A stretch of DNA of 63,873 nt, counting the filler, from Nitrospinae bacterium RIFCSPLOWO2_12_FULL_45_22 (GTDB taxonomy: Bacteria; 2-12-FULL-45-22), in assembly GCA_001803565.1 (NCBI GenBank). It is 6 parts of 6 records of this genome, joined end to end, with 100 filler letters (N's around TTAATTAATTAA, not from the genome) between each part and the next. Parts side by side here need not be neighbours in the genome. Positions count along the whole stretch, not along the records: positions 30,106 to 52,383 come from MHDQ01000205.1; 5 more parts are not named here. One strand, given 5' to 3'. Below, piece after piece: positions 37,190 to 44,628 of this stretch. Made by a program: the position numbers and the translations under genes. The notes under the pieces were generated by a model. The model searched no databases. It was not told where the DNA came from and worked only from the letters and a program-made list of their open reading frames with translations. How positions within the stretch are numbered: position 1 is the first letter of the stretch; each line of letters begins with the position of its first letter.

Positions 37190-39940
37190 TTAGGCGGCAC
37201 AGCATTTTTTATATTTCTTGCCACTGCCACAGGGGCATGGTTCATTACGGCCTACCTTGGGGCCAACTCTCCTGACGGGTTGGGGCGCCTGGCCATCACC
37301 CCCTCCGGCCCCTGCCGAAGCAGTGGCGAACTCGCCACGGTGCTCTATTATCCTTTGGCGGGCAGCCCGGCGGTGTTCCAGCGGTGCTTCTTGCTGGAGT
37401 TCTGCCTTAAAGAGATATTCTGTGGCTTCTTCTTTAATACGCTGCACCATGGCCATGAACATCTCATAGCCTTCTTTCTTATATTCATTCAGGGGGTCTC
37501 GCTGGCCATAACCCCGCAGCCCAATCCCTTCCTTCAAGTAGTCCATATTAAGGAGATGGTCTTTCCATTGAGTGTCTATGATCTGGAGCATAATCATCTT
37601 CTCCAGATGCCGTATCATAGCTTCACCGTAGCGCTTTTCTTTATTTTCGTACGTCCGTTGTAAGGCGTTAAGCAATGCCTCTCTTAAAGAGTCGCGCTTA
37701 AGCTGCCCGATAGGCAAAGGCCCATCCTTACGCCCGTCAAGGGAAATGGTATCTTTGGCCCGATCAAGGTTCAGCCGCAGGGCAAGCTTGTTCCACATAG
37801 TCTCTCTTAAGCCTTCCAGGTCCCATTCTTCCGGATGCATTTCAGAGTTTACGTAGACTACCAGGATATCATCCAACACCTCTTCCAGCATGGCAAAGAC
37901 TATCTCCTTTAATCCTCTTCCCTCCAGACATTGCCTACGTTGCTGGTAGATAACCTCCCGTTGTTTATTCATGACATCGTCATATTCTAATAAGTGTTTC
38001 CGGATGTCGAAATTATGAGCTTCTACTTTGCGCTGGGCATTCTCAATAGCCCGGGTTACCCATTTATGCTCTATAGGCTGACCATCTTCCATACCGAGCC
38101 TCTGCATCAGGCCTGAGAGTCGTTCCGAGCCGAAGATGCGTAAAAGATCATCTTCTAAAGATAGATAGAAGCGGGAAGAGCCCGGGTCGCCTTGTCGGCC
38201 AGCCCTACCCCGCAATTGGTTATCAATACGGCGGGCCTCATGCCTTTCGGTAGCTATGATATGTAAGCCGCCAGGGATTTCTCCCTCTATAGCAGTATCG
38301 TCCGAGTTATAGATAAGCTGTTTCGGTCTAATAACTTCTTCATGCTCCCGGGCACATATCCCTCGGTATTTGGGCAAAGTCTGCTGGTATTTATCCGGGT
38401 CTTTCTGGGGATCAGCTTCAGCCAGGGCCAGAAATTCAGGATTGCCACCCAAAAGGATATCCGTTCCCCGCCCAGCCATATTAGTGGCAATAGTAACGGC
38501 TTCTAGCCGGCCAGCCTGAGCTACTATCTCCGCCTCCCGCTCATGGTGCTTGGCGTTCAATACCTGGTGTTTTATGCCCCGGCGCTTTAACATCCGGCTG
38601 AGGAGCTCGGATTTTTCAATAGATATAGTTCCGACCAGGATGGGTCGGCCCAGGCGATGCAATTCCTCAATCTCTTTTACCACAGCATTGAACTTCTCTT
38701 TTTCTGTGCGGTAGATAACATCAGAGTAGTTGTAGCGGATCAAGAAGCGGTTAGTGGGGATAACTATCACATCCAGGCCGTAGATCTGGTGAAATTCGGC
38801 TGCCTCGGTCTCGGCGGTACCGGTCATACCGGCCAATTTATTATAGAGGCGAAAATAGTTCTGGAAGGTAATAGTAGCCAGGGTCTGGTTCTCATTAGCG
38901 ATATGTACCTTTTCCTTGGCTTCCAGTGCCTGGTGCAAACCATCACTATAGCGCCTTCCTGGCATTAAGCGACCGGTAAACTCATCCACAATAATTACTT
39001 CACCATTCTTTACTACATAATCCACATCTCTTTTAAATAGCGTATGGGACTTTAGTGCCTGCTGGACATGGTGTAATATTTCCATATTAGAAGGGTCATA
39101 GAGGTTTTCAACCGCCAGCAATCTCTCTGCCTTACCTACCCCTTCTTCTGAGAGACTAACGGTGCGGGCCTTCTCATCTATCTGGTAATCCTCTTCCCGC
39201 TTCAGCCTTGGTATAATCCTATCTATCTGATAATATTTTTCCGTAGACTCTTCTGCCAGCCCAGAGATGATTAATGGGGTGCGGGCCTCGTCAATAAGTA
39301 TACTATCTACCTCGTCTACTATGGCATAGTTCAATTCCCGCTGGACATAGTGTTCCAGAGAGAATTTCATATTATCCCGCAGATAATCGAAGCCGAACTC
39401 ATTATTAGTACCATAAGTTACATCGGCCAGGTAGGCCCCTTGGCGCTGCCGATCATCCATCTGGTGCTGAATAACCCCTACGGTCAGACCTAAAAATTTA
39501 TAGATCACACCCATCCATTCACTATCCCGCTTAGCCAGGTAGTCATTCACCGTTACTACATGAACCCCTCGACCAGTAAGGGCATTGAGATAGACAGGGA
39601 GAGTAGCTACCAGGGTCTTACCTTCTCCGGTAGCCATTTCAGCAATCTTACCTTCGTGCAACACTATACCCCCTAGCAACTGCACATCGAAATGCCTCAT
39701 GTCCAATACCCTACGGGAGGCTTCTCGAACCACAGCAAAGGCTTCGCAAAGAAGGGCCTCCAGGCCCTCACCTTTCTCGAAACGCTCTTTAAACTCACCG
39801 GTCTTTTGTTGGAGCTGATAATCGGAGAGCTTCTGGATATCCTTCTCCCACTGATTGATCTGGTCTGCGAGGGGCTGGATACGCTTTAATTCCCGCTCAT
39901 TCCGGCTCCCAACTATGCGTTTTACAAATTCCCAAAACAT
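37190..39940 (-). CDS. secA: Preprotein translocase subunit SecA
   Basis: [41 protein letters not shown] motif [18 protein letters not shown]. Confidence 0.98.
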
Positions 39941-40015
39941 CGTCCCCTAGTCCCTTTATAAACCTGAATTTAGACCATATTCAATATTAATTAGTTGCCA
40001 CTGAAAAATGAGATC

Positions 40016-40351
40016 TCGAGCAAGCTCGCATGCTACAAGCAATTATTATTGAATTAACGCCCTTCGGGCGAGCTTTTTAGACAGGATTAACAGGATTTAC
40101 CAATTTTTCCCTGGAAAATACCTTCTTGTCAGGCTGGAAGCCTGACCTATTTTTCATGTCCTTTGTAAGCCAATAGCTCATGAGCGCTTCCTCGTATTTA
40201 TCCTGTTTCATCTGGTAAATCCTGTCAAAAAAGGAAATTGGTATGCGATTTACCTTCTTGGGATTGATACCCTGAAAAACCGCATTATTAAAATGGAAAT
40301 TCCTATGCAATTAAATTAGAAGCGAGATTTACTCGCTCTGGATTCAGGATA
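40016..40351. repeat. Cluster of short palindromic repeats and a second TATCCTG-family MITE-like element (40268-40351)
   Basis: CGAGCAAGCTCG; GACAGGATTAACAGGATTTAC ... GTAAATCCTGTC; GTCAGGCTGGAAGCCTGAC; TCGCTCTGGATTCAGGATA. Confidence 0.6.
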
Positions 40352-40886
40352 AAAATTTCACCCATTGAATTCGTCCTTAATTATAATATAAAATGTTCTA
40401 AAGTTTAAGAGATTGCTCTAACAAAATCTTGTTTTTTGCACGGAGAATATTTCTATTGGCTCAGGGTCCATGGAGTGAGGACTGCGGACAATTAACACTA
40501 TACCTGGTATAATAAAAATATCCCATATCCCGGAAACTATATGGACTACACAATAAAATACTAATTGCCTTATATGAAGCTCTGTTGGCAATATATTTAA
40601 CTTTTCTCATGGACTACATAGGAAATACAGTTGCTTAATTATATCCCTTTATGTCAATAATATCAATGGGTTAAGCCAATTTTATGCATATTTTTTCCGG
40701 AAAGCGGGCTATATATCACGTTATTTAACCCCATAGGAGGTGAATAGCAGTTTCATTCAACAACTTCTCCTCCCCAATTATCTTTTCAGGAAAAAGCTTA
40801 ATCGGTTCCTAATGCTTAAGGATCAAAGAAGAAAAAAAATCCACGGATTATAAAAATCTTTTAGTTGTATGGAGGCATTATGAATT

Positions 40887-43610
40887 ATGAGTAAGAAAGA
40901 GTTCTTTATAAATACTGTTCGTATGATTGATGTTGAAGGTAGCACAAACATACCTACCGTTCTATACTATAGGCCCAGGGCGTCGGTACTTATAGGCTCA
41001 TCGGCACTTGCAGAAGCCAAAAATCGCTACGAGATCAATGAAGATTTCAAGATTGATCTTGGCAATATTGATCCTAAATCCGAACCACCCAAAAAGTTTG
41101 ATACAGCAACTGGAGAAAGGGTATCAGCGCGTAAACTAACCCACGATTTTCTTCACGAGGTACTTAAGTATGTTAGCGAATGGTTAGAAAATAATGACGT
41201 CGCTAAGGGTACCAGCATCTTACTGGCTGAACCATTAGTGATGCAAACTGAATTAGTGGGTCCGGATTGGTTATCAAACTACCGTCGAAATCTCGAACGT
41301 ATCTTGGATGGAAAATTTGAAAAGATTGACTTTTTGCCGGAGCCATTTGCGGTATTCCAATACTACCGGTATGGGCTTAGACATCCTCTCGTAGCCGAGA
41401 GAACCAAACATTATGCCCTTGTTATGGACTTCGGGGGCGGTACATTTGACGTTTGCATAATAGAAACAACTAAGGAAGGAGATATCAGCCGAACCGGGAG
41501 TAATTCCAGGCCATTAGCAGCCTCGTCAGGGCCCATAGGAGGCTTTTATGTGAATCGGATGATCGCCCAGGAATTGTTTTGGAAATACCTGTTACCACAA
41601 AGCCGTAAGGACAAATTTAATAAAGGGCTAGAAGTCTACGGGAAGTGGCGCAAAGGCATAGACGACCTGTCCACGGCGGCTAACGAATACTGCAACTTCG
41701 TGAATAATTTTCATGAGACTATTTACAGGGTTGAGAATCCAAAGCTTACTTTATGCAAGAGCATTGTAAACTGGGGAATCGAATCCTTACTAACCGTTAA
41801 CGTCCCGATTGCCTTACCAGAAGACCCATTTTCTGCCACTGGCAAATTCATCAATGTGCAGTTTTCAGGGAGTGAACTTCGCAACATATTTGTTAGTAAG
41901 GTGTGGGAACCACGCCTCAAACATATTATTCGCCAAGCACTTCAACGTGGCAAAGAAGAACTTTGTGGTGCACCAATTTCAGTCGTACTCCTCTCTGGAG
42001 GATCAGCCAATATTGGCTGGCTTAGAGAACTTTTACAGCGCGATTTTGCAGGTGAATTGGGCGATGCCGAAATATTGCGCTTACCCGATTTTCAAGAAGT
42101 CGTTACCAAGGGTTTGGCAGTAGAGTGTGCTAGGAGGTTTCATAATCAAGGGGGGGACTTTTCCTCGGTCACCTATAATCGACTTTGCCTTATTCTGGAT
42201 GCCGACCGCTCGGTTTATCAGCCTCAGTGCTTTAGAGCTAGAGTGGAAGGTCTGCCTAACGTGACCGATATGCCCGGTGTTTTACTCCCCTCTGCGAGTA
42301 TCCTGCGAAGTTTTATTGATAAACCAATGAGGTGGCGAGTTAAGCTGGATCATCCACCCCGTCAGCAACTAGATTACTATTTCCTTCGGTCTAGCTTTGA
42401 CCCGAATGATCATGAAAACCTGCAAAATATAGAGGAGCACATAGTCTACACCCCACTTAACTGTCCCTTCGATGCAGCTTTGCAAGTGGAACTTATCGTC
42501 AAACATGACGGCACTGCTATGCCGACATTCATATACAAGAGCGGACGTACTGAAGCAGAAACCATCGCACTTAAAGGCAAGCCGTTCTATCTCGATATGA
42601 CATACACCCAGACAGCAGCAACCTCTAAGGCATACATTGGCCTAGATTTCGGCACTAGCAACACATCAATCTCATTCGTTGATGAATCGTCCATCCAGAT
42701 TTACCGAAAACGGGCAGTGGAAAAGTCATGGAAGGAACTGAGTGATCTTGTTTCCACTCTCCCCTACCCTTTAGCTGTACCATTGGCCCTGTACCTAAGT
42801 CAGGTTGATCAGGCCAAGCTTGTAAAACAGGCCTTCGAATTCATCGAGGCTGCACTTACAATGGCCGCTTACGTGGCATATTTGGATTTTTGTTTAAATA
42901 AAACAGAGGGCGAATCAAGACTTTTTAAGGGTTTCACACAGAGGTCAGCCGGGCCACTATGGGCCTTAATCAATGACTGTCTTAGTAAGTTGGGAAATAA
43001 TGCTGTCATCTCTTGCCCTTTTCAAGAACTCTTGAACCCTGAATTTCACCAACCGCTCAATGATGCTGTAACTTTCTTTGCATCGTATAAGCACGGCAAG
43101 GTCAGAGAAACCGAATTAGACATTCTCAGAGTAGTGCAAATATTAGCAAACATCAGCCAAAAAGTATTTGCGACCCATGTCTTCGGATTTTTTGAGAACG
43201 TCTCCAAACAGAGATTCGGGAGCGAGCATCACGGTATATTTCGGCATGCATGTGGCCCTCCTCCGTTCTTCAAATTCTCCCAATATCGAGGCCCTTATAC
43301 GTTCTCAGAGGACGAGCCATTTTTGCTGAATTTGGACAAGTGCACTGCTTTGCCTCTTCAGCCTTTGATCTTTTGGGACCGTTGCAATAAACATCCTGAT
43401 GTTGATATTGGTCATTGCTACCTCTTCGATATACCAGAAAAAGGCAAAGGCCAATACTCGTTTAAGGCAGTTGGGTATCCGTGCAGTTGCCAGGTTTCGG
43501 TTACAAACCAATATCGCGCTTTAGCAGAGAAGCTAGAAGAGTATAGAGAGCGCGACTCAAAGGCCACACTTTTGCAAGTAGGTTCCGTTGAAGATATCCT
43601 AGGAGGATGA
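40887..43610 (+). CDS. Hsp70/actin-like ATPase domain protein with permuted motif order and a C-terminal domain of unknown function
   Basis: IPTVLYY near the N-terminus, LPEPFA, DFGGGTFD (aa ~181), LLSGGSAN, VTKGLA, and YIGLDFGTSNT at aa 583. Confidence 0.8.
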   Translation: MSKKEFFINTVRMIDVEGSTNIPTVLYYRPRASVLIGSSALAEAKNRYEINEDFKIDLGNIDPKSEPPKKFDTATGERVSARKLTHDFLHEVLKYVSEWLENNDVAKGTSILLAEPLVMQTELVGPDWLSNYRRNLERILDGKFEKIDFLPEPFAVFQYYRYGLRHPLVAERTKHYALVMDFGGGTFDVCIIETTKEGDISRTGSNSRPLAASSGPIGGFYVNRMIAQELFWKYLLPQSRKDKFNKGLEVYGKWRKGIDDLSTAANEYCNFVNNFHETIYRVENPKLTLCKSIVNWGIESLLTVNVPIALPEDPFSATGKFINVQFSGSELRNIFVSKVWEPRLKHIIRQALQRGKEELCGAPISVVLLSGGSANIGWLRELLQRDFAGELGDAEILRLPDFQEVVTKGLAVECARRFHNQGGDFSSVTYNRLCLILDADRSVYQPQCFRARVEGLPNVTDMPGVLLPSASILRSFIDKPMRWRVKLDHPPRQQLDYYFLRSSFDPNDHENLQNIEEHIVYTPLNCPFDAALQVELIVKHDGTAMPTFIYKSGRTEAETIALKGKPFYLDMTYTQTAATSKAYIGLDFGTSNTSISFVDESSIQIYRKRAVEKSWKELSDLVSTLPYPLAVPLALYLSQVDQAKLVKQAFEFIEAALTMAAYVAYLDFCLNKTEGESRLFKGFTQRSAGPLWALINDCLSKLGNNAVISCPFQELLNPEFHQPLNDAVTFFASYKHGKVRETELDILRVVQILANISQKVFATHVFGFFENVSKQRFGSEHHGIFRHACGPPPFFKFSQYRGPYTFSEDEPFLLNLDKCTALPLQPLIFWDRCNKHPDVDIGHCYLFDIPEKGKGQYSFKAVGYPCSCQVSVTNQYRALAEKLEEYRERDSKATLLQVGSVEDILGG

Positions 43611-43728: not shown

Positions 43729-44031
43729 ATGAAGATAGTTAAATCAAAAAACGGCATACCTATCCGATTATCGGAAGAGAGATGGATTCATATTACTGAA
43801 GAGCATTCAGAAATGGCCGGTTATTATTTTGAGGTTCTTGAAACCGTTCAAGAACCAGAGGCACTTTATGAAGGCGAGGCCGAAGAGTTGCTTGCACTCA
43901 AAGAAATTGAGTCCGGGAAATATTTGATTGTCGTGTACAAAGAGGTGAACAAAGAGGATGGATTTATCATTACAGCTTTCTTGACCAGGAGGATTAAGCA
44001 AATCGAAAGGAGGATAAAGCTATGGCCTTGA
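43729..44031 (+). CDS. DUF4258-like putative toxin
   Basis: RLSEERWIHITEEH...LIVVYKE...FIITAF; overlaps a DUF2283 gene. Confidence 0.7.
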   Translation: MKIVKSKNGIPIRLSEERWIHITEEHSEMAGYYFEVLETVQEPEALYEGEAEELLALKEIESGKYLIVVYKEVNKEDGFIITAFLTRRIKQIERRIKLWP

Positions 44032-44261
44032 TAAATGTGAAAGATATCCTCAACCTTACTCCCCAATTGTTAAGTATACCTTTTAATCGCATCTGGTATA
44101 GTTATGATGAGGAGGCAGATGTCCTGTATTTAAACTTTAAAAAGCCCAGCCATGCTGATGATAGCGAGCTCACTGATGACGATATTATCATCAGATATGA
44201 GGAGGGGGAAGTGATAGGCATTACGGTCCTTCATGCGAGTAAAAGAAAAGAGGCAATATAA
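44022..44261 (+). CDS. DUF2283-family protein (putative antitoxin)
   Basis: YDEEADVLYLNF...DDIIIRYEEGEVIGITVLHAS. Confidence 0.85.
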   Translation: MALINVKDILNLTPQLLSIPFNRIWYSYDEEADVLYLNFKKPSHADDSELTDDDIIIRYEEGEVIGITVLHASKRKEAI

Positions 44262-44353
44262 TTTAAATTTTTTTGACATGGAAAGGGAAATCGGTAATAT
44301 TATTAATGCCAATTTCTCTGGAAATCCAAGCAAGAAGATTAATGGCTGGTAAT

Positions 44354-44628
44354 GGCCGTGCTAGGTGGGGAGGTAGCGGTGCCCTGTAACCCGTAATCCG
44401 CTATAACGGGACTGAATCCCCTTTTCAGCGGCTCGGCTTCTTTCAGGGTCGGGTCTCTGGGTAAGTGGTGTTGACAACTGGGTCTTGTACAATAAGGACT
44501 TGCGAACCCCGTCAGGTCCGGGAGGAAGCAGCGGTAAGCAGGCACCCTTAGTTGCTGCAAGGGAGCCTGGTTCGAGCTAACTGCTCAGGAAGCGCCTGGG
44601 AGAGAGAGTCAATGAGGGGTGCACGGCC
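44354..44628 (+). ncRNA. ffs: Signal recognition particle RNA, large bacterial type with Alu domain
   Basis: Terminal stem GGCCGTGC/GCACGGCC; 5' GGGGAGGTAGCGGTGCCCTGT; helix 8 GTCAGGTCCGGGAGGAAGCAGC; lies upstream of dnaX. Confidence 0.93.

Follow-up and report, generated by a model that had tools for sequence, protein, structure and literature searches.

The gene and the layout of its product

The stretch of DNA analysed here, called the window, is 63,873 nt long and consists of six joined parts of the genome of Nitrospinae bacterium RIFCSPLOWO2_12_FULL_45_22 (GCA_001803565.1). The subject of the study is a gene in the part from MHDQ01000205.1, which encodes a 907-amino-acid (aa) Hsp70-like protein with its ATPase motifs in permuted order. 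The gene was placed at 40887..43610 on the + strand, stop codon included, from the open reading frame (ORF) and its translation. A Shine-Dalgarno-like site, GGAGG, was read from the sequence at 40871..40875 (+), 11 nt 5' of the ATG; an in-frame stop lies three codons 5' of the start, and the start agreed with the N-termini of homologues in an alignment of the query with 34 relatives. A protein identical to the 907-aa product was found on another public contig. The ORF and the motifs that an earlier note on this DNA had named were all recovered in the translation: DVEGSTNIPTVLYY at aa 15-28, PEPFA at 151-155, DFGGGTFD at 181-188, LLSGGSAN at 368-375, VTKGLA at 406-411, YIGLDFGTSNTSISFV at 583-598 and LPYPLAVPL at 625-633.

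The layout of the protein was determined with an AlphaFold2 monomer model built from a 35-sequence alignment (predicted local distance difference test, pLDDT, 83.9; predicted template modelling score, pTM, 0.74) and assigned by DSSP. The first segment, aa 5-422 (40899..42152, +), was an Hsp70-type nucleotide-binding domain minus its first beta-hairpin, and it held K55, E152 in PEPFA, D181-D188 in phosphate 2 and S370-N375 in the adenosine motif. After a poorly predicted linker (aa 420-430) came a beta-rich domain, aa 433-568 (42183..42590, +), apparently like the substrate-binding beta domain of Hsp70 in fold, and then a second low-confidence linker (aa 572-580). The relocated phosphate-1 beta-hairpin followed at aa 582-599 (42630..42683, +), with strands at 582-588 and 592-599 (pLDDT 84-85) and residues G585, D587, F588, G589, T590 and S591, so assigned from DSSP, hhalign, conservation and coevolution. 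Relative to its usual place, the first hairpin of the Hsp70 domain is thus shifted about 570 residues towards the C-terminus. The rest of the chain, aa 600-907 (42684..43607, +), was an alpha+beta module without family match, composed of helices (600-763), strands (764-871) and a final helix.

The claim that the protein begins directly with the segment normally following the phosphate-1 loop was borne out by hhalign, in which DVEGSTNIPTVLYY fell on NAEGSRTTPSMIAF of DnaK, after the first hairpin. The possibility of a missed upstream GxDxGT motif was also checked; the pattern D.G[TS][TSA] was absent from all three forward frames of 40000-40950, and the in-frame stop closes the frame of the gene itself.

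Evidence for a permuted nucleotide-binding domain

For the comparison with DnaK, the query and 34 of 120 listed relatives were set against six DnaK/HscA proteins from genomes that also hold the family. Residues 15-414 were aligned with DnaK 29-374 (hhalign, probability 95.4%, E 2e-8), and a 42-sequence sub-alignment of aa 571-627 placed aa 583-608 on DnaK 4-29 (probability 85%, E 6e-6). The two alignments were complementary, since the segment missing at the N-terminus was recovered at aa 583-608. With phmmer, aa 557-618 also matched the RuvC-I motif of IscB weakly (E 0.29-0.7), which was taken as a shared RNase-H-like hairpin motif, and homology with IscB was rejected.

The order was a property of the family. 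Among 203 full-length relatives, the late phosphate-1 motif (aa 585-591 in the window protein) was located at aa 560-687 in 201, and a phosphate-1-like motif occurred in the first 150 residues of none; the permuted order was likewise found at 55 of 66 genome loci. The question whether homologues share it was thereby answered, and on these sequences the motif order is neither chance nor a local chimera. Nine residues, K55, E115, E152, D188, S370, G371, G372, G585 and D587, were invariant in all 203 members, while D181, F588 and G589 were kept in 202. T186 was T in 192 and S in 11, and T590 was always T or S. The N-terminal D15 varied, being E in 72 and D in 68 of the 203. With equivalences to the Hsp70 catalytic residues taken from the hhalign alignments, and K55 assigned by eye, the catalytic constellation was complete (phosphate-1 Asp, Lys, connect-1 Glu, phosphate-2 Asp/Thr and adenosine GG). 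Given the conservation in 203 members, the full Hsp70 catalytic set was strictly selected only when the late hairpin was counted as part of the site.

Coevolution was analysed by mean-field direct coupling analysis (DCA) of columns 3-200, 360-432 and 576-612 in 201 main-family sequences (effective number 148). The pair L89-L586 ranked second among 45,783 pairs, and six of the 25 top pairs bridged the hairpin region and the ATPase domain (L89-L586, D57-T590, D199-T593, T24-V598, V92-L586 and K94-K581). The signal persisted when the sister clade described below was added. According to the hhalign maps, L586 corresponded to DnaK I7 and L89 to DnaK L120, in the lobe-I helix after subdomain IB. The partners of the hairpin were this helix, the N-terminal strands, the loop beside K55 and the phosphate-2 hairpin, which we take to be those of a canonically placed hairpin in the Hsp70 topology. 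In three shuffles of the hairpin block the maxima were 1.09, 1.47 and 1.24, compared with 2.77 in the real data, and 0, 1 and 1 pairs exceeded 1.2, compared with seven.

The window protein has a two-lobed actin-like ATPase fold of the Hsp70 type. Structural alignments by VIA never reached the first ~20 residues of solved Hsp70 domains, with whose chains the window protein shared 14-20% identity, and two VIA rows put helix 600-608 on the ATPase domain of the same chain. The permuted nucleotide-binding domain proposed in the earlier note was therefore supported by complementary alignments, by structural alignments lacking the start of the Hsp70 domain, by conservation and by coevolution. We infer from the alignments, conservation and coevolution that the ATP site would be composite, completed by the late hairpin packing against lobe I.

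Six VIA rows extended over the beta-rich domain, with 429-438 residues aligned from about 6 to 568 of the model and DnaK-type chains followed up to residue 471-538. In the model, this domain appears to resemble the Hsp70 substrate-binding beta domain, at the level of fold, a likeness that the earlier note had missed. The beta-rich region described earlier was thus present, with a length of about 136 aa (433-568) plus two flexible linkers rather than ~170 aa. No helical lid was recognised after the beta domain, the post-hairpin region having been searched as part of the whole model only.

The C-terminal module gave no consistent Pfam match: there was none at all for the window protein, and the best family shared between members reached 2 of 41 (E 0.12). 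PHROGs yielded just two single-member matches with E above 0.003, and when the profile was run against PDB sequences the only matches, to nanobody and PARP14 fragments (E 0.015 or weaker), were taken as chance. A profile search of 1.84 billion representatives gave 327 matches, and the best 150 of them held no new fusion, all being the same ~900-aa family or fragments. Fold neighbours in the ESM Atlas were stand-alone or fused to N6-methylase, Macro, CHAT, specificity-subunit or SAM domains (TM score by query 0.5-0.76; feature matches 0.86 or below) and serve as unverified leads only. Within the module, H736 and P826 were invariant and E654, S687, D848 and K735 nearly invariant among the 203 members. 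A PD-(D/E)xK nuclease reading of D848...K860 was dropped, as the middle acidic position was S in only 112 of 203 and no fold evidence spoke for it. A Cys/His cluster (C833, H836, H843, C844 and C866; aa 833-868, window about 43383-43490) was present in about 140-145 of the 203 members and replaced in the rest; its composition resembles that of a metal site.

Distribution, the Fic-fused sister clade and neighbourhoods

A word-indexed search gave 431 database relatives, of which the best 120 were mostly full length (900-930 aa) and 45-73% identical. Named ones among these 120 came from Acidobacteriota, Verrucomicrobiota, Thermodesulfobacteriota and Geomonas, and their public annotations were 'molecular chaperone', 'Hsp70 family protein' or 'hypothetical'. 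PF00012 was precomputed for 34 of them. The relative at locus L056 scored 40.9 bits against PF00012, with a match beginning at profile position 31, and NCBIfam gave weak HscA-, DnaK- and YegD-type matches around aa 144-239 of the window protein. A pattern scan of one genome per species matched 66 loci in at least six phyla, a lower bound because the scan relied on two peptide patterns; the taxa, as named in the record titles, were Acidobacteriota, Desulfobacterota-type lineages, Verrucomicrobiota, Bacteroidota, Patescibacteria and alpha-, beta- and gamma-proteobacteria. When genomes of two genera were sampled, the gene was detected in 2 of 101 of the first and in 1 of 24 of the second, a patchy distribution such as suits an accessory, mobile gene but not a housekeeping chaperone. 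Each of five family-bearing genomes checked also encoded a canonical DnaK. At six loci (L027, L043, L048, L052, L053 and L063) the gene was broken into two or three ORFs, which could be frameshifts, pseudogenes or assembly errors of metagenome bins.

Eleven distant loci matched the window protein only over aa 1 to about 598, with 23-27% identity. The permuted order was kept at 9 of 10 examined, with GIDFGTSNSY-type hairpins at aa 447-573, and a Fic domain followed about 100 residues past the hairpin in 9 of 9 full-length proteins tested (E 1e-15 to 2e-19). Its catalytic motif was intact in 9 of 10 locus ORFs, and the Fic domains matched the PADLOC model SoFic (E 2e-24 and 1.6e-25). The Fic domain with its HxFx(D/E)GNGRxxR motif was confined to this sister clade, the window protein having no Fic match. 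A database search with the N-terminal 600 aa of one sister member returned 68 proteins: 46 with Fic, four pieces of ~600 aa and 18 of the window's own family. Among 41 full-length Fic fusions, the late hairpin motif was found in 39 and the Fic motif in 41; the lone N-terminal match to the pattern sat after the VPTIVAY strand, not at the phosphate-1 position. The other two fusions (P0308 and P0315) had no phosphate-1-like motif even with a loose pattern, and their ATP sites may be degenerate. From the sister clade it follows that the 600-aa permuted module is a unit that ends just after the hairpin and is joined to at least two C-terminal modules. The coupling to an effector suggested in the earlier note is upheld indirectly by the intact Fic domain in the same position in the sister clade, and not by the window's own module, which remained unmatched.

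In the window, the gene lies in an islet bordered on the left by secA (37190..39940, -; Pfam SecA_DEAD, E 2e-134, and four further SecA domains) and on the right by the large signal recognition particle (SRP) RNA gene ffs (44356..44626, +; Rfam RF01854, 196.9 bits); tilS and secA are upstream, and ffs, dnaX, ybaB and recR downstream. Between the gene and ffs there are two further genes, each a separate module. A BECR-fold toxin-like gene was found at 43729..44031 (+; PBECR2, PF18810, E 3.4e-6, 27.7 bits with a cut-off of 27.1; DUF4258 was weaker, E 0.059), and a DUF2283 antitoxin-like gene at 44022..44261 (+; PF10049, E 5.6e-16) overlaps its end by 10 nt. The neighbours reported before, namely a DUF4258/DUF2283 pair between secA and ffs, were thus confirmed as a PBECR2/DUF4258-like and DUF2283 pair, and Pfam agreed that the islet between secA and ffs contains neither dnaJ nor grpE.

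Further signals were noticed around the islet. An imperfect 19-nt direct repeat (79% identity; 40587-40605 and 44252-44270, spacing 3665 nt) flanks the Hsp70-like gene and the toxin-antitoxin pair, and it may have arisen by chance or may delimit an inserted islet. The ~950 nt from secA to the gene (39941-40886) are AT-rich (G+C 0.34-0.37 compared with 0.43-0.51 around) and contain inverted repeats (40073-40102 / 40210-40233), terminator-like hairpins on the + strand (40058-40070 and 40128-40146) and a 77-codon ORF on the - strand without family match; this stretch may be what is left of the vehicle by which the islet arrived. The longest dnaX frame begins with GTG at 44619, inside the Rfam SRP RNA match that ends at 44626, and the true dnaX start is probably further downstream.

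Neighbourhoods of relatives were scanned with 126 of 170 listed neighbour ORFs at 46 loci, after loci with fragmented genes and the distant clade had been set aside. No neighbour gene was conserved across the family loci, and Pfam found no DnaJ or GrpE among the 126 proteins. They included DDE, Mu, IS21 and Tn7-type transposases, integrases, PIN, AbiE, HipA and GmrSD/Schlafen-like proteins, as well as C5-methylase, WYL, CHAT, and HerA and SNF2 helicases. After removal of nine transposase-type proteins, 117 proteins from 44 loci (two genes on either side) were compared with PADLOC at E 1e-8 or better, and matches were found near the gene at 17 of the 44 loci, a raw count. These comprised HmaA/HmaB, SspF/DndF, AbiE, DUF4297-HerA, a Ppl-like protein and ShosA, among others; four of the 17 loci were doubtful (a sigma-54 activator, TnsB, a weak type III match and an HhH-GPD protein). 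PADLOC matches were few among the neighbours of the distant Fic clade.

At the loci with HmaA/HmaB, namely L012 (4465-13753), L021, L043 and L051, the family gene adjoined, or was enclosed by, the genes for an HmaA-type SNF2 helicase and an HmaB-type DUF1156 methylase. Published work describes the hma operon as a hotspot for inserted defence genes (PMC11232893; PMC8565338), and the family gene looks like another cargo inserted there. Identity with HmaC was rejected: HmaC, whose gene accompanies those of HmaA and HmaB, is described as an ATPase of the DUF499 type (PMC11232893), and the HmaA/HmaB-flanked relatives at L012 and L051 matched no PADLOC model.

Interpretation, alternatives and relation to known systems

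These results suggested to us, with somewhat better than even confidence, that the product of the gene is a naturally occurring, circularly permuted Hsp70 ATPase working as a single-chain switch, most likely as a rare, horizontally moving conflict or defence gene. The family is probably an ATP-driven switch acting on its attached output domain, and possibly serves phage defence. Residues 5-422 would form the nucleotide-binding domain of Hsp70 except for its first two strands; from there a flexible linker would lead into a beta domain like the substrate-binding domain, and a second linker would bring the chain back as the missing beta1-beta2 hairpin with the phosphate-1 loop, D587 and T590. The hairpin would then complete lobe I and the ATP site and run straight into the 300-residue C-terminal output module. 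With this chain layout, the ligand at the beta domain, the nucleotide state and the position of the output module would therefore be mechanically linked. The Hsp70-like part might sense a peptide or protein cue, upon which the output domain would be released. The permuted module is portable: in the sister clade it carries a Fic (AMPylase) domain that looks active and is of the type of the defence protein SoFic. By analogy with that clade, and from the patchy distribution and the neighbourhoods, we infer that the protein may act as a sensor, switch and effector in defence. The defence role put forward earlier is consistent with the rarity of the gene within genera and with the neighbourhoods of relatives.

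Several observations weigh against this reading. The gene sits among housekeeping genes in the window, and the G+C of its body is similar to that of the flanks. Pfam HSP70 (PF00012) reached only 17 bits on the window protein, below the cut-off of 20.6, and covered only aa 173-195; PADLOC models matched neither the window protein nor five relatives. For the beta domain, a profile of 43 sequences (aa 423-576) showed no significant match to DnaK/HscA (probability 0.6%, E 0.11), the best local alignment of this non-significant comparison falling on the expected DnaK strands 458-480. Only the top pair between hairpin and domain in the DCA clearly exceeded the shuffle maximum, and the shuffles ignore phylogeny. 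At 27 of the 44 loci there was no PADLOC match within two genes on either side. Finally, since the C-terminal module matches no family, it is named an output or effector by analogy with the clade that bears Fic.

The alternatives differ in which part of the proposal they dispute. With the same architecture, the hairpin of one protomer might act in trans and complete the ATP site of another, and the working or activated form would then be an oligomer or filament joined head to tail in an ATP-dependent way. We consider this unlikely but worth keeping in mind: the two low-confidence linkers would let the hairpin reach an adjacent subunit, DCA contacts cannot tell cis from trans, and NTPase switches that multimerise have been described in conflict systems (bioRxiv 10.64898/2026.10.19.760177), whereas the monomer model was confident (pTM 0.74; pLDDT of the hairpin 84-85) and the two VIA rows placed helix 600-608 on its own chain. 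That the late GxDFGTSN hairpin is instead a non-catalytic relic of a duplicated second ATPase domain, leaving the N-terminal domain a nucleotide-binding pseudo-enzyme without phosphate 1, is very improbable. Circular permutants are thought to arise through duplication, and the hairpin is about 570 residues away from the rest of the site; but G585 and D587 are kept in 203 of 203 members and F588 and G589 in 202, the Fic clade, 23-27% identical, retains the motif, the lobe-I residue L89 coevolves with L586, and in the model the hairpin is followed by helices 600-763 and then strands, not by an ATPase-like fold. An assembly chimera, or a frameshifted gene that has lost its true N-terminus, has a negligible chance and was ruled out, since relatives, genome loci and 201 of 203 members share the permuted order. 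The AT-rich region upstream of the gene (G+C 0.34-0.37) was the one point found in its support; against it stand the identical protein on another contig, the 431 relatives, the same order at 55 of 66 loci from at least six phyla, and the in-frame stop with no upstream motif in any forward frame.

A different kind of doubt concerns function. The protein might be a specialised chaperone or proteostasis factor, permuted by happenstance and devoted to one client or stress response, rather than an immune or conflict gene. Such a role has a modest chance of being correct, about as small as that of assembly in trans. The Hsp70 fold with its complete catalytic set, the substrate-binding-like beta domain, the housekeeping context in the window and the public names 'molecular chaperone' and 'Hsp70 family protein' all speak for it. 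In eukaryotes Fic enzymes regulate the Hsp70 BiP (cf. titles of PDB entries 7b7z and 6zmd), so the Fic fusions could be self-regulating chaperones. It is opposed by the presence of the gene in merely 2 of 101 and 1 of 24 congeneric genomes, by a canonical DnaK besides the family member in all five genomes checked, by the lack of a conserved partner and of DnaJ/GrpE among the 126 neighbours, by neighbourhoods rich in transposases, integrases, toxin-antitoxin, restriction or defence genes, and by the SoFic type of the Fic domain in the sister clade.

The single-chain switch remains the reading we prefer, and a more specific form of it is offered only tentatively. It would be the first recognised natural circular permutation of the Hsp70 ATPase and a new class of single-chain immune switch, in which the hairpin would link a client-binding domain to a killing or output module that can be exchanged (either the unfamiliar alpha+beta module or a Fic AMPylase), so that client capture might gate assembly of the ATP site, in cis or between protomers, and hence release of the effector. 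Few molecular machines have been studied as closely as Hsp70, and the N-terminal position of its phosphate-1 hairpin is taken as given throughout the actin/Hsp70/sugar-kinase fold. The family is a natural experiment on the wiring of nucleotide state, client binding and downstream action, one that automatic annotation now labels 'molecular chaperone' or 'hypothetical protein'. If the defence reading is true, bacterial immunity would gain a system made of one gene, with a new logic of sensing, and the Hsp70-Fic fusions would acquire a functional context. Literature searched on Hsp70 and conflict systems gave no account of a permuted form, though supplementary family lists could hold one.

Compared with canonical Hsp70 proteins (DnaK, HscA, Hsc70 and BiP), in which the phosphate-1 hairpin is N-terminal and a helical lid is present, the window protein carries its hairpin after the beta domain and a 300-aa alpha+beta module in place of the lid; it is also a rare accessory gene, with no DnaJ/GrpE neighbour found, and falls below the Pfam HSP70 cut-off. 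The CoCoNuT type IV restriction-like systems contain Hsp70-like units of nucleotide-binding and substrate-binding domains, namely CnuD, CnuCD and Hsp70-McrB fusions (PMC11090510). They share with the window protein an Hsp70-like ATPase and substrate-binding-like unit followed by a helical region; in these predicted defence systems the unit is proposed to sense or target rather than to work as a foldase. However, the CoCoNuT units occur in linkage or fusion with McrB/McrC homologues and reportedly have degenerate Walker A-like motifs (PMC11090510), whereas the catalytic set of the window family is essentially invariant. No gene for an McrB-like GTPase or McrC was found between secA and ffs, and one neighbour across the 44 loci of relatives had an AAA_5 domain. 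The string 'permut' does not occur in the article text of PMC11090510, its supplements lying outside that search.

SoFic is a single-gene, standalone Fic-domain defence protein (Millman et al. preprint, 10.1101/2022.05.11.491447). The C-terminal Fic domain of the sister clade matches its model and keeps the catalytic motif, but it is preceded by a 600-aa permuted Hsp70 module, and the window protein has no Fic domain. More broadly, HSP70 occurs in GTPase-centred conflict systems (PMC7159879), and HSP70-like NTPases stand in for STAND switches in conflict systems (bioRxiv 10.64898/2026.10.19.760177). A lid-less DnaK-like domain fused to EACC1-protease death-effector modules has been proposed as a sensor of misfolded proteins (PMC12642450). 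That domain is reportedly 50% identical to canonical DnaK and, in the excerpts of the source, is not described as permuted, unlike the window protein with its 14-20% identity and its other output module; both the EACC1 fusions and the window family nevertheless join an Hsp70-type domain to a C-terminal or effector-type module.

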